Assembly (NCBI GenBank): GCA_963642885.1
Contig: CAVIJI010000005.1
Location: forward strand, 22,185 to 86,184
DNA from: a bacterium
GTDB taxonomy: Bacteria > Bacillota > Clostridia > Oscillospirales > CAG-272
Length of the DNA stretch: 64,000 nucleotides
Direction of reading: 5' to 3'
Program-made: the position numbers and the translations under genes
The notes under the pieces: model-generated
What the model was told of the DNA's origin: nothing
The model's database searches: none
Seen by the model: the letters and a program-made list of their open reading frames with translations, nothing else
In this document: piece by piece, positions 4,229-58,324 of the stretch
Layout: every line of letters begins with the position of its first letter
How positions within the stretch are numbered: the stretch's first letter is position 1

Positions 4229-4993
4229 ATGATTATGTCAAAAAAAGTGAAATATATAACGATTAAAGCAGGTAAGCTTCTTCGCACGGCATCGGATATC
4301 GCGGAAGACGTCGACTCCATTATGTCACGCGACCCTGCCGCGAAAAATCGTGCGGAGGTTGTGCTTCTGTATTCCGGCTTTCATGCTCTTCTGATGTACC
4401 GTCTCGCACACTCGATGAGTAAAAAGGGAATGGTGCTTCCCGCGCGAGCCGTTTCGCAGTTCGCGAAATTTCTGACAGGCATCGAAATACACCCCGGAGC
4501 AGAGATAGGCAAAGGATTGTTTATCGACCACGGTTCGGGTGTTGTAATCGGTGAAACCGCGATAATCGGAGACAACTGCACTATCTATCAGGGAGTGACA
4601 CTCGGCGGTACGGGCAAGGAAACGGGAAAACGCCACCCCACTCTCGGAAACAACGTAATGATAGGCGCGGGCGCGAAGCTGCTCGGAAACTTTACCGTCG
4701 GTGACAACTCCAAAATCGCCGCAGGCGCGGTGGTTCTCCACAATGTGCCCGCAAACTCAACCGCAGTCGGTATTCCCGCCCATGTTGTAAAGAAGAACGG
4801 AGAAAAGGTTGCAAAGCCGGAAAGCAAAGAAGAGGTGTGCTGCGACCTCGACCAGGTAAACATCCCCGACCCCGTTGAAATAGAATTCGAAGGTCTCGAG
4901 AAGAGAGTGGCGAATCTCGAAGAGCTGCTTGCGCGTTTTTCCGACGTAAGCGAAACAGATAATGACGAAAATCGGAAGGAGAACGACAATTGA
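4229..4993 (+). CDS. cysE: Serine O-acetyltransferase
   Basis: DPAAKN...LLYSGFHALLMYRLAH...IEIHPGAEIGKGLFIDHGSGVVIGETAIIGDNCTIYQGVTLGG...KRHPTLGNNVMIGAGAKLLG is a left-handed beta-helix hexapeptide SAT signature. There is an acidic C-terminal tail of about 60 aa. Confidence 0.92.
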   Translation: MIMSKKVKYITIKAGKLLRTASDIAEDVDSIMSRDPAAKNRAEVVLLYSGFHALLMYRLAHSMSKKGMVLPARAVSQFAKFLTGIEIHPGAEIGKGLFIDHGSGVVIGETAIIGDNCTIYQGVTLGGTGKETGKRHPTLGNNVMIGAGAKLLGNFTVGDNSKIAAGAVVLHNVPANSTAVGIPAHVVKKNGEKVAKPESKEEVCCDLDQVNIPDPVEIEFEGLEKRVANLEELLARFSDVSETDNDENRKENDN

Positions 4994-6180
4994 AATGCCC
5001 GAATTGCGGCAGAGACAATGACGACGGAGCGAAATTCTGTAAATTTTGCGGATGCACTCTGAACGTTTCGGACTCTCCCCCGTATTACAACATAGACATG
5101 AATCCGCCCGAGAAGCCTAAAAAAAGCAGATTTGCCGTCGGTCTTCGTGCGGTGCTTATATCGCTTGTTTTTGTTTTTCTTCTTTTCGGCTGTCAGTCAT
5201 GCGTTACAACGGGATACGCATTCTCTCTGACAAGCTCGATTACGTATCAGGATATTTCCTCCGAGGAAGCGCTGACCGCGTTTTACAATGAGCTGTATGC
5301 CATGGTCGCCGATAAAACCGAATTGATACTTTTTATCTCGAATCTGCTGACCGTGCTTATTACCTGCCTGTTCTTCCGTTTACGCGGCAAAAATCCTCGT
5401 ACCGAGGTTTCCTGCTACAAGGTAAACGTTCTCCGTACACCCTCGTTTGTGCTGTTCGGGTGCGCGCTGAATTTCTTTGTTTCCCTTACGATATCGATAG
5501 TTCCGTTTCCCGATACATGGATCGAGAATTTCAACAGCGCCTATGCCGAAATAAGTGTTTTTTCAGACCCGCTTGACCTCATTTTCACGCTGCTCAGCGT
5601 AGGTCTTGTCACGGGAATCACCGAGGAAATCGTTTTCCGCGGCGTTTCGCTGAAGCTGCTTGTTCCGGCCCTCGGTAAAATTCCGTCCGTTATCATTACC
5701 GCTCTGATATTCGGTCTCGCTCACGGTACGCCGATTGCGATGTGCTACTCTTTCGTTATCGGACTGATTTTCGGCGCACTTGACATAGCGTACGGTTCCG
5801 TGATTCCGAGTATAATCTGTCATGTTTTCTTTAATCTCTCATCGTATATACTGTCGTCCGTTCCGGAATCCTCCGGTATGTTCGGCGCGCTTTACGTAAT
5901 ATCCGCCGCACTGCTGATTCTTCTGACCTACCGCATTTTCATACGTCATCCCGTCTTTTCCGATGTTGTCGCCGACTCCGACAACAGGATAGAGCCGATA
6001 AACGAACGCGAAAAGGAAATCGTGGCATCGCTTAAGGAGCTGCAGAACAGACTTGACAGCGATGATGTCGAGAATATAGTCGATGACTGGGAAGAGCTGA
6101 AGCAAAAAAAGATAGATTTGGCCGAGGAATGGACGAAAAACCGCATCGATGCCAAACAAAACAAACATAATAAGAAATAA
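4990..6180 (+). CDS. Zinc-ribbon plus CPBP-family (CAAX/Abi) intramembrane glutamic endopeptidase
   Basis: N-terminal CPNCG-X11-CKFCG zinc ribbon. CPBP motifs are TGITEEIVFRG, FGLAHG and CHVFFN. The TTG start at 4990 overlaps the cysE TGA (4991-4993). Confidence 0.8.
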   Translation: MKCPNCGRDNDDGAKFCKFCGCTLNVSDSPPYYNIDMNPPEKPKKSRFAVGLRAVLISLVFVFLLFGCQSCVTTGYAFSLTSSITYQDISSEEALTAFYNELYAMVADKTELILFISNLLTVLITCLFFRLRGKNPRTEVSCYKVNVLRTPSFVLFGCALNFFVSLTISIVPFPDTWIENFNSAYAEISVFSDPLDLIFTLLSVGLVTGITEEIVFRGVSLKLLVPALGKIPSVIITALIFGLAHGTPIAMCYSFVIGLIFGALDIAYGSVIPSIICHVFFNLSSYILSSVPESSGMFGALYVISAALLILLTYRIFIRHPVFSDVVADSDNRIEPINEREKEIVASLKELQNRLDSDDVENIVDDWEELKQKKIDLAEEWTKNRIDAKQNKHNKK

Positions 6181-6197
6181 AAAAGGATATATACCAT

Positions 6198-7676
6198 ATG
6201 AAGCTTTACAATTCACTGACACACACCAGAGATGAATTCACAACGCATGAGAGCGGGAAATGCACCATGTACACCTGCGGTCCCACGGTGTATCATTTCG
6301 CTCATATCGGAAACCTTCGCTCCTACATAATGGAGGATGTACTCGAAAAATATCTGCGCCATACGGGACTCGACGTAAAACGCTGCATGAACATTACCGA
6401 TGTGGGACACCTTACAAGCGATGCCGACACGGGTGAGGATAAAATGCTCAAGGGCGCTAAGCGTGAGCACAAAACCGTTATGGAAATAGCGAAGTTCTAC
6501 ACCGATGCTTTCTTCTCCGATTGTGAAAAGCTCAACATCAAACGTCCCGATATAGTGGTTCCCGCTACGACATATATCCCGCAGTTCATAGAAATGATAC
6601 AGCGCCTTCTCGATAAGGGTTACGCGTATCTTTCCGAGGGCAATGTTTATTTCGATACGTCGAAGCTCGACGAATACTATGTATTCAACAAGCATGACGC
6701 GGAAGACCTCGAGGTAGGTGTCCGCGAAGGCGTAGAGGAGGATAAAGCAAAGCACAGCAAAACCGACTTTGTTCTCTGGTTCACAAAATCGAAATTCGAG
6801 GATCAGGAGCTCAAGTGGGACAGTCCGTGGGGTGTCGGTTATCCCGGATGGCATATAGAATGCTCCGCGATTTCCGTCAATAATCTCGGTGAGTACCTTG
6901 ATTTGCACTGCGGCGGTATCGACAACGCATTCCCGCACCATACAAACGAAATCGCGCAAAGCGAGGCTTATCTCGGTCACAAATGGTGCTCTCACTGGTT
7001 CCATGTACTTCATCTCAACACATCATCGGGAAAAATGTCAAAGTCGACGGGAGAATTTCTTACGCTTTCTCTGCTTGACGAAAAGGGCTATTCTCCGATG
7101 GTATACCGTTTCTTCTGCCTCCAGTCACATTACAGAAAAAATCTCGTTTTCTCATACGAGGCAATGGATTCAGCCAAGACCGCATACAATAAGCTGATAA
7201 CAAAAATCAGCGGACTTAATTTCGCCGACACAACTCCCGTTGACGCCGATAAATACGCGAAGCTCGAGAAAGATTTCACGGACGCAATGGACAACGATTT
7301 GAATACGGCACTTGCGGTTACCGCTATATATAATGTTTTGAAATCCGATATAAGCGATGCGGGCAAAATAAAGCTCATCGAGGATTTCGACTCCGTTCTT
7401 TCGCTCTCGCTCATAAAGGAAGCGAAAACACTTGCCGCGCACCTCGCCGAGGAGAAAAAAGCCGCATCGTCCGCTCCCGCCGCACTTACCGTTACGTGCC
7501 TGACTCCGGGAATCGAGCCCGAAAAACGTGCGGAAATCGAAAAGCTTATAAACGACCGTGCAGACGCGAAAAAGGCGAAGGACTTTGCCGCCGCGGATGC
7601 TATCCGCGATAAGCTCACTGAAATGGGAGTTACACTCAAGGACGGCAAAAACGAAGTAAAGTGGGAGCTTGCCTGA
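6198..7676 (+). CDS. cysS: Cysteine--tRNA ligase
   Basis: Class I signatures are CGPTVYHFAHIGN (HIGH) and KMSKS, plus GWHIECS zinc-binding. The protein is 492 aa. Confidence 0.95.
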   Translation: MKLYNSLTHTRDEFTTHESGKCTMYTCGPTVYHFAHIGNLRSYIMEDVLEKYLRHTGLDVKRCMNITDVGHLTSDADTGEDKMLKGAKREHKTVMEIAKFYTDAFFSDCEKLNIKRPDIVVPATTYIPQFIEMIQRLLDKGYAYLSEGNVYFDTSKLDEYYVFNKHDAEDLEVGVREGVEEDKAKHSKTDFVLWFTKSKFEDQELKWDSPWGVGYPGWHIECSAISVNNLGEYLDLHCGGIDNAFPHHTNEIAQSEAYLGHKWCSHWFHVLHLNTSSGKMSKSTGEFLTLSLLDEKGYSPMVYRFFCLQSHYRKNLVFSYEAMDSAKTAYNKLITKISGLNFADTTPVDADKYAKLEKDFTDAMDNDLNTALAVTAIYNVLKSDISDAGKIKLIEDFDSVLSLSLIKEAKTLAAHLAEEKKAASSAPAALTVTCLTPGIEPEKRAEIEKLINDRADAKKAKDFAAADAIRDKLTEMGVTLKDGKNEVKWELA

Positions 7677-11260: not shown

Positions 11261-12037
11261 TTATCCGAGAGCAACGTCAAGCGTCATCATAAGACTGAAA
11301 CCGACCGCGAAAAAGATTGTTCCTATATTGGAATGACTGCCCTGAGACATTTCGGGAATAAGCTCCTCTACGACAACATAAAGCATCGCTCCCGCGGCAA
11401 AGCTCAGCAGGTACGGAAGTGCGGGAGCAATATATGCGGCGGCAAGTACGGTAAGTGCGGCTCCTATCGGTTCAACTATGCCCGAGAGAATACCTCCGAG
11501 AAAAGCACGGCGTTTTTTCATTCCCTCGCTTCTGAGCGGCATGGATATAATCGCCCCTTCGGGAAAATTCTGTATGGCAATACCGAGCGATAACGCCAAA
11601 GCACCCGCTGTGCTTATATCCGCTTGTGACGAAACCAATCCCGCGAGAACAACGCCGACCGCCATACCCTCGGGTATATTGTGCAGTGTTACCGCAAGCA
11701 CCATCATTGTTGTTTTTGTGAGAGAGCTTTTCATACCTTCCTCTGTTCCGCTCATGGCGTGCAGATGAGGAATGATTTTATCAAGAGAAAGCAAGAACAG
11801 TATTCCGAGCCAGAAGCCCGTGACGGCCGGAATAAACGACAGCTTTCCCATCGAATCTGCTTGTTCGAGCGAGGGGATGAGAAGGCTCCACACCGATGCG
11901 GCAACCATTACACCCGCGGCAAAACCCGTAAGAGAACGGCGCAGATGCTCGCTCATTTCACGCTTCATGAAAAATACGCATGCGGCACCGAGAGAGGTCC
12001 CGAGAAAAGGAATAAGTATGCCGAGAAAGACTTCCAT
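11261..12037 (-). CDS. ZIP-family zinc/metal transporter (ZupT-like)
   Basis: The protein is polytopic. It has HNIPEGMAVG and IAIQNFPEGA motifs. Confidence 0.85.
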   Translation of the reverse strand: MEVFLGILIPFLGTSLGAACVFFMKREMSEHLRRSLTGFAAGVMVAASVWSLLIPSLEQADSMGKLSFIPAVTGFWLGILFLLSLDKIIPHLHAMSGTEEGMKSSLTKTTMMVLAVTLHNIPEGMAVGVVLAGLVSSQADISTAGALALSLGIAIQNFPEGAIISMPLRSEGMKKRRAFLGGILSGIVEPIGAALTVLAAAYIAPALPYLLSFAAGAMLYVVVEELIPEMSQGSHSNIGTIFFAVGFSLMMTLDVALG

Positions 12038-12277
12038 ATATATATGTATCCTTTCGAAAGATATGTTGTGGATTTAAGGATATGCCGTTAAGTATCCGAC
12101 AGCCCCATTATCATTATAACATTCCGAAAAGACAAATTCCGCTCCGATAGGATATAAACGGCGGTAAAATTACATATACAAAACAATTGTTTGCTTTCGT
12201 AAGTATATTTATTCATGAATACAATGTATAATATAATCGGAACGCGGATTCCGAAATAAAACGAAGGGGGGATGTAG

Positions 12278-12424
12278 TTGAAAATCAAAAGCAAAGCTGT
12301 GCTTCAGCTCGCGCTTATTGCACTCGGAGCGGTGCTTGTCACTGCGGGAGCAATGAGAGGAGAGGTTCAAACCGTTCTGTCTAAGGCGGTAAAGCTATGT
12401 CTCGAGTGTGTCGGAATTGGCTGA
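12278..12424 (+). CDS. Small membrane-anchored CXXC-motif protein (resembles the CD1871A family)
   Basis: Absent from the ORF track (48 aa). TTG start 7 nt after the GAAGGGGGG Shine-Dalgarno. Translation: [48 protein letters not shown]. It has one TM helix followed by C-L-E-C. Confidence 0.65.
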
Positions 12425-13328
12425 GAAACATAATTCTTTTTCGCGTATTTTGAGCAGGTACCGCCTGTTGGTACAAACGTGCTCGACCATTGTGACAAAC
12501 ATACATATCCCGAATTTTTTCGGCGGAGAAATATACCGCGGTAATTTTAAAAAGCTGTGTGTGCCGGTGCTTAACTGCTATTCGTGCCCGGGAGCCGCGG
12601 GTGCCTGCCCTATAGGTGCGTATCAGGCGGTTGCGGGATCCTCGAAATACGGCATATCGATGTATATTATCGGTTTTCTTATCCTTGTCGGAATGCTCCT
12701 CGGAAGGTTCGTGTGCGGTTTTCTGTGTCCCTTCGGTTTGCTCCAGGGCCTGATACACAAGATTCCTTTCAAGAAGTTTTCGACGAAAAAGCTGCATATT
12801 TTAACATATTCGAAGTATATTGTCCTGGTACTTATGGTGTTCACCCTCCCCGCCGTTGTCACGAACGAACTCGGAATGGGAAATCCGTTCTTTTGCAAAT
12901 ACCTGTGTCCGCAGGGAGTAATAGAGGGGGCGATTCCGCTTGCGCTGGCAAACGAAAGTATAAGAGGTGCGCTCGGAACACTGTTTACATGGAAGCTCGG
13001 AATACTTCTTGCGGTTGTTTTCGCAAGTCTTGTTTGGTACAGACCGTTCTGCAAGTGGCTGTGTCCTCTCGGCGCGTTTTACGCCGTGATGAACAAATTC
13101 ACACTTCTCGGAATGAAGGTGGACGGAGACAAATGCGTGTCCTGCGGAAAATGCGCGAAATCATGCCCGATGGATGTCGATATCACAAAGAATACGAATA
13201 GTGCCGAATGCATAAGATGCGGAAAATGCGTAACGGCTTGTCCGACAGAAGCGATAAAATACAGGTACGGTATCGGCGAAAAGGTAATCATACATAATGC
13301 CGACAAAGGAATAATTCGAAAAAAATAA
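12408..13328 (+). CDS. Polytopic 4Fe-4S-binding membrane protein (NapH/NosR-like polyferredoxin)
   Basis: Repeated CX3CP motifs are [27 protein letters not shown] and CKWLCPLG. The C-terminal 2x[4Fe-4S] motifs are [12 protein letters not shown] and [12 protein letters not shown]. The start overlaps the small CXXC ORF by 17 nt. Confidence 0.8.
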
Positions 13329-13358
13329 AATTCGTTTGCCGAAAAAAGGAGTAAAATC

Positions 13359-14249
13359 ATGAAAACGAAGAAAATAGCGGCTGTTATACTGTCCGTGCTG
13401 ATGCTTATAACAGCGGTATCATGCGCGAAGAAAGAAGAAAGCATGACGGAGGAAGAAATACAGAACGCCATGAATGAGCTTTATGCGGAAGAAAACGAGC
13501 TGTTCGGCACTCATGCGGAACAGTGGGAGGTTGTTTTCGCGAACATGGACAAAGAGTCCGTTATGAACAACACCGACGATTACGCAACGTTTCTCGGTAA
13601 GAGTATAGATGCGTGTCAAAGTCTGTTCACCGCCGATGATCTGGCGATTCTCAAAGAGGATGTCGAAAAAATAAGGGAAATCGAAGAACAAATATCCGAA
13701 CTCAGTGAAAAAACGGCATCGGCATCGGATTCGTCATCGGTTTCCATGACAGCTTTTCCGAGCTTTGTCGGCAAGGATTTTGACGGCAACGATGTCGACA
13801 GCGGAATTTTCGCCGAAAATTCCGTCACGGTAATTAACTTCTGGTTCAACGGCTGTTCTCCGTGCGTGAATGAACTCGGAGATTTGAACGCGCTGAACGA
13901 ATCACTTAAGGAACGCGGCGGCGAGCTTATCGGAATAAACGTCGAAGCGTTTGACGGAAACGAAAGCATCATAACCGAAGCGAAATCGATTCTCGCATCG
14001 AAAAACGCGTCTTACAGAAACATATACTTTGACTCGAACAGCGAGGCGGGACAATACGCGGCGCAGATTATGGCGTTCCCGACGACTGTATTCGTCGACA
14101 GACAGGGGAATATCATCGGCGACCCGATAGTCGGAAGCATTAACGATGATGAGGGCATGAAAAAAGTGAACGAACGTATCGACGAGATAATCGCGGCGGA
14201 TGAAGTGAGTGCAAACGCGACTGTTATATCGGGCTATGTGGAAGGATAA
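13359..14249 (+). CDS. Lipoprotein with a TlpA/ResA-like thioredoxin-fold domain (thiol:disulfide oxidoreductase)
   Basis: The signal peptide plus lipobox is MKTKKIAAVILSVLMLITAVSC. The Trx-fold motif is VINFWFNGCSPCVNELGDL, with active site C-S-P-C. Confidence 0.8.
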   Translation: MKTKKIAAVILSVLMLITAVSCAKKEESMTEEEIQNAMNELYAEENELFGTHAEQWEVVFANMDKESVMNNTDDYATFLGKSIDACQSLFTADDLAILKEDVEKIREIEEQISELSEKTASASDSSSVSMTAFPSFVGKDFDGNDVDSGIFAENSVTVINFWFNGCSPCVNELGDLNALNESLKERGGELIGINVEAFDGNESIITEAKSILASKNASYRNIYFDSNSEAGQYAAQIMAFPTTVFVDRQGNIIGDPIVGSINDDEGMKKVNERIDEIIAADEVSANATVISGYVEG

Positions 14250-14583
14250 CCGTACGAAACAATATAAAACCGAGCATTACGTATTCAATTACAATGCCGA
14301 TTCGAAGGCGGAAGAGGATATTTCGAAAATATCGCGGCTTCAGGAATCATGCTTCGGTTATATATGTAATGTTTTAAAGACCGAGCCGACGTTTAAAATC
14401 GAATATTACCTATGCGAAACGCCCGAGGAGGTCGGACGTCTTTACGGAGACAACGAACCGTGCAACGGATTTGCTTCCTCACCGAATGAAATATACGCCG
14501 TATACAACGAAAAGACAAAATGCGTCGGCTTTCACGAGGATGACCACATAATAAGCTATACCGTAAGACACCGAATGAGCTGA
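14236..14583 (+). CDS. HExxH-motif (HEDDH) hypothetical protein, probably truncated or frameshifted
   Basis: The internal ATG at 14236 overlaps the upstream gene by 14 nt. The ORF ends 10 aa after the HEDDH motif. The +1 frame continues PNELNAMFTDYVKIFETDETLKHRMGELLSLYSNK* to 14677. Confidence 0.45.
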   Translation: MWKDNRTKQYKTEHYVFNYNADSKAEEDISKISRLQESCFGYICNVLKTEPTFKIEYYLCETPEEVGRLYGDNEPCNGFASSPNEIYAVYNEKTKCVGFHEDDHIISYTVRHRMS

Positions 14584-14843: not shown

Positions 14844-15368
14844 TTATTGCTTTTTGCGAGCTTCAACGTATTCCGCTATCTTTGACGCGCAGATTTCACT
14901 CGGTTCATCGGTTGAAACTATGATATCATACGCGCTGTCGTCCTTCGGTGTTATGTGCTCGTTTTGCCACAACGCTTTGCCGATGGTGCGGTTTCCTCTT
15001 TCTTTTTCACGGCGTACGAGGTTTTCCTCGGATATTTTTATTCTTACGAAAACGGTGGCGCATTCCTTCATTATTTCCCGCGATATTTCGTATATATCCT
15101 GCGTGTCGAACAGGCAGTTGTCTATAACAACGTCACGTCCGGTGTTTGCTATGGCGGCGGCGGATGAATACATTACGGTCAGAAAATCATGCTCGGCTTC
15201 GTTTTCGTCGGCAAAGGGAAACGAGTGCGGTGTCATATATCCGTCTACGATGTCGTATGAAAGATGATACAGCGGTGTTTTCCATATTTTCTGCAGATTT
15301 TTCGATAATGTGGTCTTGCCGCAGCTTGACGGGCCGTTTAAAACGATTATGATGCCTTTATTTTTCAT
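14844..15368 (-). CDS. P-loop kinase, chloramphenicol-phosphotransferase-like (CPT) family
   Basis: MKNKGIIIVLNGPSSCGKTTLSK contains the Walker A motif. The start is chosen at the internal ATG at 15368, which has GGAGG 10 nt upstream. The substrate is unknown. Confidence 0.6.
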   Translation of the reverse strand: MKNKGIIIVLNGPSSCGKTTLSKNLQKIWKTPLYHLSYDIVDGYMTPHSFPFADENEAEHDFLTVMYSSAAAIANTGRDVVIDNCLFDTQDIYEISREIMKECATVFVRIKISEENLVRREKERGNRTIGKALWQNEHITPKDDSAYDIIVSTDEPSEICASKIAEYVEARKKQ

Positions 15369-15570
15369 TGATACTGTTCCTCCGAATAATGGTGTGATTT
15401 GAATGATATCACCCGGGTGCACACGAAAATACTTTATAATGTGAATAAAAAGTAAAAAAGAAATGAGAACTGTCGGCTGACTGCATTTTCATTATGAAAA
15501 AATCTGCTTCTGTATCGCAAACAGCTACATATGTCATTCAAAACCGCACTAAATTGTTAAATTTATATAA

Positions 15571-21720: not shown

Positions 21721-22656
21721 TTATTCGTGGGCGGAAATCCATTTTTTCATTTCGTCACGGAACGGGAATCCCGTATTGCCGCCAAGCTTTGTCACGGACA
21801 GTGCGCCGCACGTGTTTCCGCATTTCAGGCATTCCTCCATCGGCAGACCGTTCAGGAAACCGTAAACAAAGCCCGCGTTGAAGGAATCCCCCGCACCCGT
21901 TGTGTCAACGGCACTAACCTTGTACGCGGGGGCGAAATATTTAATTCCGTCGCGTATAGCCAAAGCACCGGTTTTGCCGAGCTTGATTACCGCCATGCCG
22001 ACACCTGCATCGGCGAGCTTGCGGGCACCCTCTTCGATGTCGTCGCAGCGTGTATAATGAGCACATTCCGTTTCGTTCATAAACAACACGTCAATCATCG
22101 GCAGAAGCTCGAATATTCCCTCGTACCATACGCCGGTCGTATCCCAGCCCACATCAAACGAAACCGTAACGTCTCCCATTTCGTGTGTTTTTTTCAGTAC
22201 GGACAGGTACTCACCGTGGTTTGAAAGTCCTTCGTAGCCTGTGACGTGTACATGTCTCGCTTCCTTCAGCTTTTCGAGATCCATGTATCGCAGAGACAAA
22301 CCCTCGTTCGTTCCGCGATATGTAAGGAAACAGCGTTCCTTTTCCGTTGTAAAGCTGATGGAAATACCGGTTTTTTTGGTTTCACTGTCGGTGAGAAGAC
22401 TGTCGTCGGCACCGAGCTCTCTGAACAGTCCCCGAATATAGCTGCCGTACATGTCCTTGCCGATGCTTCCCTGAAGCACGGATTTCAAGCCGAGCTTGGC
22501 GGTACCGAGTGTGAATAACGCAGCGCCGCCGCCGACAAAGGTTTCCATAGTCGGTACGTCAACCTCGCTGCCTGGGTCGGGCAGCTGTTCGACACCGGGA
22601 ACCACAAGGTCGATATTGACGTCGCCGTATACGTATACATCCCATTTTTTCTGCAT
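21721..22656 (-). CDS. PfkB-family carbohydrate kinase
   Basis: The N-terminal motif is GGGAALF. The C-terminal ribokinase-family signature is DTTGAGDSFNAGFVYG. Confidence 0.85.
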   Translation of the reverse strand: MQKKWDVYVYGDVNIDLVVPGVEQLPDPGSEVDVPTMETFVGGGAALFTLGTAKLGLKSVLQGSIGKDMYGSYIRGLFRELGADDSLLTDSETKKTGISISFTTEKERCFLTYRGTNEGLSLRYMDLEKLKEARHVHVTGYEGLSNHGEYLSVLKKTHEMGDVTVSFDVGWDTTGVWYEGIFELLPMIDVLFMNETECAHYTRCDDIEEGARKLADAGVGMAVIKLGKTGALAIRDGIKYFAPAYKVSAVDTTGAGDSFNAGFVYGFLNGLPMEECLKCGNTCGALSVTKLGGNTGFPFRDEMKKWISAHE

Positions 22657-57918: not shown

Positions 57919-58176
57919 TTATTTTTTCAGGAACGAAAACAGGCCCTTTTTTTCATACGGTTCAGAGTTCGAAGAAATGAGGGTATAGCCTGTTTTTTTG
58001 ATCACATCAGCCAGCTTGCCATCGTCAATGCCGCTGTCGCTGATTATGATGCACTCACCCTTTGTGTGTGATGAGCTGACTTTTTTCACGGGGAACGCGG
58101 CTCTGACGGCATCGTTGATATGAGCCTCGCACATTCCGCACATCATACCGTCTATTTTAAGAGTTGTTTTTACCAT
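57919..58176 (-). CDS. Heavy-metal-associated (HMA) domain protein
   Basis: The start is set at 58176, after GGGAGG. MVKTTLKIDGMMCGMCEAHIN contains the GMxCxxC motif. Confidence 0.8.
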   Translation of the reverse strand: MVKTTLKIDGMMCGMCEAHINDAVRAAFPVKKVSSSHTKGECIIISDSGIDDGKLADVIKKTGYTLISSNSEPYEKKGLFSFLKK

Positions 58177-58324
58177 ATAATACGAATCCTCCCGATACAA
58201 ATGCATATAGGGTTAGAGACTGCTAACCGATACAATTGTACCACCGTCATGCGGAAAAGTCAATATCGTACGTGAAAAACAGGTGAATATTGCATTGAGA
58301 TGAACTGAATTTTTTCCATAACGA

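Follow-up and report, generated by a model that had tools for sequence, protein, structure and literature searches.

A candidate iron–sulfur route of reducing power to an envelope thioredoxin, built on a NapH-like membrane protein and a CXXC mini-subunit

The thioredoxin-fold proteins ResA, TlpA, StoA, CcmG and Etrx are extracytoplasmic reductants that are normally fed by CcdA or DsbD, and beyond DsbD/CcdA the reduction of envelope cysteines in strict anaerobes, like repair after oxygen exposure, is poorly understood. Iron–sulfur-dependent disulfide reduction has its precedents elsewhere, in ferredoxin:thioredoxin reductase (FTR), which uses six cysteines in CP/CxC-type motifs, and in heterodisulfide reductase, with one-electron chemistry converted to two-electron chemistry next to a [4Fe-4S] cluster. 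Here we describe a three-gene locus in a 64,000-nucleotide stretch of DNA (hereafter 'the window') from a clostridial bacterium of the Oscillospirales (CAG-272; GenBank assembly GCA_963642885.1, contig CAVIJI010000005.1, forward-strand positions 22,185 to 86,184). The locus encodes a 48-amino-acid peptide with a CXXC motif, a 306-amino-acid iron–sulfur membrane protein resembling NapH, and a 296-amino-acid thioredoxin-like lipoprotein. These are parts of known kinds in what our comparisons indicate is a new combination, widespread in anaerobes including gut taxa and Clostridioides difficile, and we consider it reasonably likely that they act together as a DsbD/CcdA-like supplier of reducing power to a surface thioredoxin.

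NapH-like proteins have been described as modular transmembrane electron conduits to flavinylated extracytosolic partners, with many different partners, in work that also treats DsbD systems with a small secreted CXC protein but contains no system made of a NapH-like protein, a thioredoxin and a CXXC peptide (Méheust et al., PMC8238504). The role of the CX3CP motifs in such proteins was left unresolved by Buttet et al., who suggested a thioredoxin-like disulfide (PMC5928378). Our own literature search found no description of the peptide/iron–sulfur/thioredoxin trio.

The three open reading frames (ORFs), read from the sequence and from the ORF translations, all lie on the forward strand and together span 12278–14249. 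The peptide gene (12278–12424, TTG start) shares 17 nucleotides (12408–12424) with the iron–sulfur protein gene (12408–13328, GTG start), which is followed after a gap of 30 nucleotides (13329–13358) by the lipoprotein gene (13359–14249); a preliminary description of this DNA had reported the same tight linkage, and both the coordinates and the reading frames bear it out. Public gene calls for this metagenome-assembled genome omit the peptide gene and begin the iron–sulfur gene 28 codons late. We preferred the long iron–sulfur ORF, whose GTG overlaps the peptide stop, because its N terminus is conserved in homologues. The peptide gene was likewise left out of the public calls in every annotated contig that we inspected (window 12278–12491; L081–L083 and L190–L193).

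The peptide belongs to the CD1871A family. It matches the NCBIfam model NF040920 ('CD1871A family CXXC motif-containing protein') with 62.9 bits (cutoff 32; E = 1.8e-17), the match taking in peptide residues 12–48 and all 38 model positions, whereas a Pfam scan gave no family for it. Its layout is simple: a lysine-rich N terminus with three lysines before the helix, one transmembrane (TM) helix at about residues 7–26, and a conserved tail. The preliminary description had a single-TM peptide of 48 residues ending in C-L-E-C; the size and the helix stand, but the true end is CLECVGIG, which places the CXXC (12398–12409, forward strand) four residues from the C terminus. NF040920 carries a name only, and a literature search for CD1871A found no paper on the family; the single match to 'CD1871' uses R20291 numbering and refers to an ABC (ATP-binding cassette) permease, so we set it aside as not belonging to the CD1871A family.

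To compare the locus across genomes we used four sets totalling 241 related loci: the 80 closest loci (the window's clade), on contigs from one genome per species, which come from Clostridia, many Collinsella, Eggerthellaceae, a spirochaete and Flexilinea; 80 loci of a fusion clade and 2 loci with a GltD-like fusion, both described below; and 79 deeper loci from multiple phyla, including Aminicenantes/Acidobacteriota, Gaiellales, Desulfobacterota, Thermodesulfobacteriota, Syntrophales, Clostridium species and C. difficile. With a relaxed peptide motif for the deeper set (C-x-[E/D/S/N/A]-C-[IV]-G-[IVL]-G) and a refined one for the two fusion sets and the window, we found the peptide directly 5′ of the iron–sulfur gene, on the same strand, at 235 of the 241 loci and in at least seven phyla (80/80 in the window's clade, 80/80 in the fusion clade, 2/2 with the GltD-like fusion and 73/79 in the deeper set). 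Most of the 80 window's-clade loci even keep the same 17-nucleotide overlap, and the peptide's C-terminal motif occurs just once in a six-frame translation of the 64-kb window. The CXXC stands C-terminal to a hydrophobic helix, and its cysteines never vary, either among 36 distinct homologous sequences or in the three locus sets; the invariant residues are R27, E29, V33, L34, K36, A37, C41, E43, C44, G46, I47 and G48. Up to six different codons are used at these invariant positions, so selection acts on the protein (purifying selection) and the gene is a real coding gene. The C-terminal 22 residues as a whole hardly vary from phylum to phylum. In the fusion clade the CD1871A helix and tail form the C terminus of a protein of ~265 residues with five predicted TM helices, and CD1871A is therefore a domain rather than a secreted peptide. 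Judged by these patterns the CD1871A peptide is an obligatory partner of the iron–sulfur protein, and what is new here for the family is this constant pairing, the five-TM form that carries it as a C-terminal domain, and its predicted orientation toward the outside.

The iron–sulfur protein is polytopic, with four predicted TM helices, and falls in the NapH-like superfamily: Pfam Fer4_5 (PF12801) matches it in two stretches with 73.7 bits against a threshold of 22, accompanied by two Fer4 motifs. It has the NapH architecture, two CX3CP motifs after TM2 and TM4 followed by two C-terminal 4Fe-4S motifs, and its C103/C107, C215/C219 and eight ferredoxin cysteines align with those of Escherichia coli NapH and YccM. 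It is nonetheless NapH-like but not NapH, because its scores fall well below the family cutoffs (71.8 against 213.05 bits for TIGR02163 NapH/MauN and 61.9 against 234 for NF007013, with only the C-terminal third matching), because no nap genes, and hence no napG/napA context, lie in the window or in the neighborhoods of the 241 related loci, and because it has extra cysteines. The preliminary description counted four CX3CP motifs; there are three (C103-C107, C163-C167 and C215-C219), and the remaining one is instead a C-x5-C-x2-CP-x5-CP cluster. Its two cytoplasm-type 4Fe-4S ferredoxin motifs were read correctly, as two CX2CX2CX3CP motifs matched by Pfam Fer4.

These cysteines fall into five segments, all encoded on the forward strand. 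The first predicted outer loop holds the cluster C51-x5-C57-x2-C60-P-x5-C67-P (12558..12611), which is family-specific, invariant in our alignments A1, A2 and A3, and absent from E. coli NapH and YccM. The first inner CX3CP (CGFLCP, C103-C107; 12714..12731) is the counterpart, in the alignment, of the first NapH motif; it lies where TM2 meets the cytoplasm, and a lysine-rich cytoplasmic loop comes after it. The third loop, predicted to lie outside, contains the second family-specific and invariant element, the CX3CP CKYLCP (C163-C167; 12894..12911), at which NapH and YccM retain only the proline. The second inner CX3CP (CKWLCP, C215-C219; 13050..13067), at the cytoplasmic end of TM4, aligns with the second NapH motif, and the cytoplasmic ferredoxin domain (13134..13244; Pfam Fer4, Fer4_10 and Fer4_7) has the two CX2CX2CX3CP motifs and is predicted to bind 2x[4Fe-4S]. 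An alignment of 131 sequences shows no variation at any of the 18 cysteines. The outer six (C51, C57, C60, C67, C163 and C167) are kept down to 38% identity, in relatives of 38–47%, and are missing from E. coli NapH and YccM, which have the inner CX3CP pairs and the ferredoxin cysteines in common with this protein. The alignments thus mark the six outer cysteines as the defining novelty of the subfamily.

A PDB sequence search with the iron–sulfur protein returned matches confined to the ferredoxin domain (polyferredoxins, FwdF and HdrA), and between this search and a Foldseek comparison only the ferredoxin and thioredoxin domains found solved relatives, the membrane domain none. Several relatives (P0146, P0161, P0183, P0212, P0222, P0135 and P0140) carry extensions without any family match, some multi-TM and at the C terminus, others at the N terminus and made up either of additional TM helices or of one TM helix with a soluble domain behind it; on sequence comparison these are further modularity of the six-cysteine NapH-like core. 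A separate group of long homologues (P0002, P0004, P0005, P0011 and P0022; 347–431 residues) was rejected as fusions; these contain exact internal duplications of the membrane domain and look like metagenome assembly artefacts.

The third gene product begins with a signal peptide and lipobox (residues 1–22, ending LITAVSC), followed by a helical N-domain of ~105 residues (about residues 25–130) that is clade-specific, of unknown fold, and without a Pfam or other family match, and then by a TlpA/ResA-like thioredoxin domain (about residues 131–265) with CSPC at residues 166–169 (13854–13865). The lipobox-type cysteine in the signal peptide (MKTKKIAAVILSVLMLITAVSC; LAAC or LVAC in homologues) predicts an exported, membrane-anchored protein. 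With Pfam matches to AhpC-TSA (45.5 bits against 26) and Redoxin (40.6 against 26.6), the protein is indeed what had been described before, an exported lipoprotein with a thioredoxin fold and a C-S-P-C site. Its closest solved relatives by sequence and by fold are ResA, TlpA, StoA, Etrx (Etrx1/2) and CcmG, the fold comparison having been run in Foldseek with a fused homologue, P0155, rather than with the window lipoprotein. Because it stays far under the equivalog cutoffs for ResA (40.6 against 170 bits), TlpA (38.9 against 230) and StoA (32.4 against 210), these scores make it a relative within the TlpA/ResA family and not an orthologue. Homologous lipoproteins keep C-x-P-C, where x is K, N, S, G, A or P.

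The thioredoxin partner occurs in three arrangements. Within the window's clade, a strict rule places the lipoprotein gene directly 3′ of the iron–sulfur gene in at least 72 of 82 loci, usually 23 nucleotides away or with a 4-nucleotide overlap. Ten loci did not pass: in four the contig ends within 900 nucleotides, and at least three more (L002, L003 and L036) do have the gene, with a different ORF start. Neighboring genes change between these loci while the trio persists. In the second arrangement the two proteins are one. An exhaustive search of 50%-identity representatives gave 527 clusters at E<=1e-30, many of them 430–820 residues long, and by Pfam these long relatives are the iron–sulfur protein with one or two AhpC-TSA/Redoxin thioredoxin domains fused at the C terminus; such C-terminal thioredoxin fusions are present in at least 570 species-level Clostridia genomes. 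In the deeper set, a thioredoxin lipoprotein gene is immediately upstream in 32 of the 79 loci and downstream in 4, with both in two loci, so that 34/79 (43%) have an adjacent one; the order in C. difficile (L273) is thioredoxin (CGPC), peptide, iron–sulfur protein. No other partner family was comparably enriched in any of the three neighborhood sets. The conserved linkage of the three genes thus holds as a nearly constant peptide/iron–sulfur pair with a thioredoxin that lies downstream, upstream or fused, and three arrangements that include covalent fusion support functional coupling better than fixed synteny would. From this comparative evidence the three genes are very probably functionally coupled. 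The earlier statement that the pair is conserved in Clostridia and has no assigned function needs amending in one respect: no function has been assigned, but the range, at least seven phyla, is far wider than Clostridia.

Two further observations concern these neighborhoods. In Collinsella (Actinomycetota; L015–L080) the whole cassette consists of kinase, regulator, peptide, iron–sulfur protein and lipoprotein, with a ~1090-residue fused ABC-ATPase/FtsX permease following the module, and the proteins share ~64% identity with their clostridial counterparts, a level suggestive of horizontal transfer between gut bacteria. In the fusion clade (L084–L163), convergent downstream genes often encode large secreted proteins (for example L113:8793-11426, L089:6696-9449 and L122:6529-6999, all on the minus strand), one type with a redoxin domain of its own (CSWC); others are lipoproteins, Ig-like or carboxypeptidase-regulatory-like, in which cysteines are paired. 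We count them as candidate clients or as candidates for additional members of a relay.

Covalent fusion is also informative about topology. The fusions run from the ferredoxin domain through a K/R-rich stretch, one hydrophobic helix and an acidic stretch to the thioredoxin domain, and in an AlphaFold2 model of the fusion P0155, built on the 131-sequence alignment (pLDDT 81.4, pTM 0.71), the linker is a single long helix (residues 305–347). A model of the window iron–sulfur protein from a shallow alignment (35 sequences of 63–81% identity) had a pLDDT of 37 and was unusable. Lacking a Tat signal, a 2x[4Fe-4S] domain has to stay in the cytoplasm, and since only one TM helix intervenes, the thioredoxin domain must be outside, in agreement with the lipoprotein form. 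In NapH the CX3CP motifs are reported to lie where TM2 and TM4 reach the cytoplasm, and here loop 2, after TM2, is strongly basic (net charge +5.2). A basic loop 2 and a cytoplasmic C terminus place loops 1 (C51, C57, C60 and C67) and 3 (C163 and C167) outside by TM parity, and an N-in start is confirmed by the cytoplasmic GltD-like domain that directly precedes the first helix in P0251 and L167. In the five-TM CD1871A form, the motif helix is the fifth, the first helix is N-in and the even-numbered loops are arginine-rich; together with the lysine-rich N terminus of the 48-residue form, this puts the peptide CXXC outside. The predicted cysteines therefore occupy both faces of the membrane, with the ferredoxin domain inside and the thioredoxin domain, the peptide CXXC and the six loop cysteines outside.

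The clearest pointer to an electron donor comes from the GltD-like fusions. P0251 and L167, a rare form known from two genomic loci, have at their N terminus a Pyr_redox_2 + Fer4_20 module, the NAD(P)H/FAD/iron–sulfur unit of GltD, SudA and NfnB, and the Planctomycetota metagenome-assembled genome with this fusion has the gene order peptide, iron–sulfur protein, CSPC lipoprotein. The CXXC couples of TlpA/ResA-type proteins are less reducing than ferredoxin-type clusters and NAD(P)H, a difference that favors outward reduction, and we think that electrons probably flow outward. In the scheme that we propose, a membrane-bound unit would draw on a low-potential donor in the cytoplasm, deliver its reducing equivalents to the outer side of the membrane and there keep the lipoprotein reduced. 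Reduced ferredoxin or an NAD(P)H-flavoprotein would load the two cytoplasmic [4Fe-4S] clusters, from which electrons would reach the two inner CX3CP motifs, where a further cluster might be bound or a cluster-adjacent disulfide formed, as in FTR. Electrons would then cross the membrane domain to the six family-specific cysteines of the two outer loops and pass by thiol–disulfide exchange to the CXXC of the CD1871A peptide, to the CxPC of the lipoprotein, or to both, and the lipoprotein would in turn reduce client proteins of the envelope. Of these elements, the direction, the sequence in which the cysteines act, the cofactors of the CX3CP motifs and the clients are our inference, and the peptide may be either a shuttle or a structural or assembly subunit. 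An iron–sulfur-driven route to an extracellular thiol–disulfide oxidoreductase, as the preliminary description had it, is thus supported by comparative genomics, its direction and mechanism being predictions.

The scheme resembles DsbD/CcdA working with ResA, TlpA, CcmG or Etrx in its proposed job, the delivery of reducing power to a membrane-anchored extracytoplasmic CXXC protein of the TlpA/ResA type, and in its proline-adjacent cysteines at the ends of membrane helices. Unlike DsbD/CcdA, it has a membrane domain unrelated in sequence, with 18 invariant cysteines and a ferredoxin domain; its proposed input is iron–sulfur clusters at the ferredoxin/NAD(P)H level and not cytoplasmic thioredoxin; and a CXXC peptide or domain is an obligatory partner. 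The iron–sulfur protein gave no match to PF02683 (DsbD/CcdA) and does not belong to that family. The expectation that no ccdA or dsbD gene would be found nearby was also upheld: the multi-TM ORFs of the window encode an Rce1-like protease, a ZIP protein, ABC permeases, a xanthine/uracil permease, a major facilitator superfamily transporter and a DedA/VTT protein, and a tblastn search with E. coli DsbD, a single query of limited sensitivity for distant CcdA, gave no TM-domain match at E<=0.01 in the window or in 271 related loci (2.5 Mb).

With NapH, NosR, RdhC (PceC), MauN and YccM the protein has in common a four-TM core, two CX3CP motifs after TM2 and TM4, a C-terminal 2x[4Fe-4S] domain and the general role of a conduit to an extracytosolic redox partner (PMC8238504, PMC5928378). 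What sets it apart from this group is the lack of nap, nos or rdh neighbors and of an FMN-binding domain, the six extra cysteines in the outer loops, and its partners: in place of NapG, a flavodomain or a respiratory reductase, it is paired with a CXXC peptide and a protein of thioredoxin fold. FTR and heterodisulfide reductase offer a chemical precedent for the proposed disulfide step, but they are soluble or peripheral cytoplasmic enzymes to which we detected no homology. Taken together, we give slightly better than even chances that this is a third bacterial route of reducing power to envelope thiol–disulfide oxidoreductases, unrelated to DsbD/CcdA, with ferredoxin or NAD(P)H input, by way of a six-cysteine NapH-like protein and a CXXC mini-subunit.

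Several points weigh against this interpretation, for which the support is comparative. Electrons would have to cross ~30 Å of membrane along no visible path. The net charge of loop 1, +4, makes a simple positive-inside reading less secure, so that the placement of this loop outside rests on TM parity, and it is also the least confident part of the P0155 model (pLDDT 47–66). The search for DsbD/CcdA covered the window and related loci, and ccdA or dsbD may lie elsewhere in these genomes. Fold class does not fix the direction of transfer, as some CcmG-like proteins (mycobacterial DsbE/DsbF) are described as oxidants, and the GltD/NfnB-like module is reversible in principle. Finally, no thioredoxin gene adjoins the pair in 45 of the 79 deeper loci, which leaves the peptide and the iron–sulfur protein as the invariant core, and the thioredoxin may be one client only.

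The last point leads to the main rival, in which the pair is a broader outer-face reductase whose chief substrate is a metal ion (compare the cupric reductase CcoG of the NapH superfamily), a small-molecule disulfide or some other envelope acceptor, and the thioredoxin is ancillary or just one of several clients. CXXC peptides are capable of metal binding, and the window operon is divergent from a ZIP/ZupT-type metal transporter gene (11261–12037, minus strand). This adjacency is not conserved in relatives, most of which have an OmpR-type two-component system in that position, and we rejected it as a clue to function. In the deeper set, only 34 of 79 loci have an adjacent thioredoxin as against 73 of 79 with the peptide, and NapH-like conduits are known to serve many different partners (PMC8238504). 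A general reductase of this kind would not readily explain why a thioredoxin has been recruited in three independent arrangements, with covalent fusion in hundreds of species, while no other partner is comparably enriched in the three neighborhood sets, and we regard it as unlikely.

Supply of reducing power outward, our preferred reading, must also be weighed against electron flow in the opposite direction, with the lipoprotein acting as a DsbA-like oxidase that the peptide and the iron–sulfur protein re-oxidize, passing electrons to cytoplasmic acceptors as an analogue of DsbB/VKOR for quinone-poor anaerobes. Many carriers are fermentative anaerobes for which we know of no DsbB/VKOR route, DsbF is among the Foldseek fold matches of P0155, and the possible oxidant role of CcmG/TlpA-fold proteins and the reversibility of the fused GltD/NfnB-like module count here as well. 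Transfer in this direction would run uphill, from a typical thioredoxin-fold CXXC couple to the more reducing ferredoxin-type [4Fe-4S] clusters and NAD(P)H; the best scores of the lipoprotein go to the reductants ResA, TlpA and StoA and to redoxin-type families; and neither Pfam nor Foldseek detected the alpha-helical insertion domain of DsbA-type proteins. Reverse flow is on these grounds improbable.

More doubtful still is the idea that the module is an envelope redox sensor that signals through an adjacent OmpR-type two-component system instead of supplying electrons in bulk. A divergent response regulator is present in 74 of 80 window's-clade loci and a HAMP histidine kinase in 55 of 80, but no such two-component system exists anywhere in the 64-kb window, the fusion clade also has none beside the module, and a two-component system next to an operon is more often its regulator than dependent on it, all of which makes a sensor very improbable. 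With no two-component system in the window, what relatives show about regulation does not carry over to this genome. Least credible is a ribosomally synthesized and post-translationally modified peptide or bacteriocin, with the small ORF as precursor, the iron–sulfur protein as maturase and the thioredoxin helping disulfide formation: a small cysteine-containing peptide beside an iron–sulfur protein, and the ABC ATPase–FtsX fusion downstream in Collinsella, would fit, but a near-invariant C-terminal segment is unlike a core peptide, the conserved core has no radical-SAM motif, leader protease or dedicated exporter, and the recurrence of the segment as the last TM helix and tail of a five-TM protein in another clade effectively refutes it.

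If outward supply of reducing power is the correct reading, the module would feed extracytoplasmic thiol chemistry from a new source, at the level of ferredoxin or NAD(P)H, and would provide a first function for the CD1871A family and a concrete role for the long-unexplained CX3CP motifs of NapH-like proteins. As it is common in gut commensals (Clostridia and Collinsella) and is present in C. difficile, it could affect oxygen tolerance, spore or envelope biogenesis, and colonization. The natural fusions are ready-made constructs for biochemistry.

Upstream of the operon, in the intergenic region common to it and the divergent ZIP/ZupT gene, three signals were read directly from the sequence. 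The Shine–Dalgarno sequence GAAGGGGGG (12263..12271, forward strand) is 6 nucleotides 5′ of the TTG start of the peptide gene. An extended −10 element, TGTATAAT (12225..12232, forward strand), is a possible promoter element for the operon; a consensus promoter scan passed over it because it has no good −35. Between TGTATAAT and the peptide ribosome-binding site sits an inverted repeat, TCGGAA-N6-TTCCGA (12237..12254), with perfect 6-bp arms, listed as a minus-strand stem-loop, which may be an operator or a 5′ hairpin.

Downstream, a 124-residue ORF (14209–14583, forward strand; 115 residues in the public call) overlaps the 3′ end of the lipoprotein gene by 41 nucleotides; it has no Pfam or NCBIfam match and is not conserved beside the module in other loci. 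Farther upstream are two cysteine-related genes, for a serine acetyltransferase-like hexapeptide protein (4229–4993) and cysteinyl-tRNA synthetase (6198–7676), and between them (4990–6180) is the gene for the Rce1-like CAAX protease, which has an N-terminal zinc-ribbon-like CxxC. Two other genes in the window are unrelated to the thiol module: one encodes a chloramphenicol-phosphotransferase-like P-loop kinase (14844–15422, minus strand), and the other a small heavy-metal-associated (HMA) protein with an MxCxxC motif (57919–58206, minus strand).

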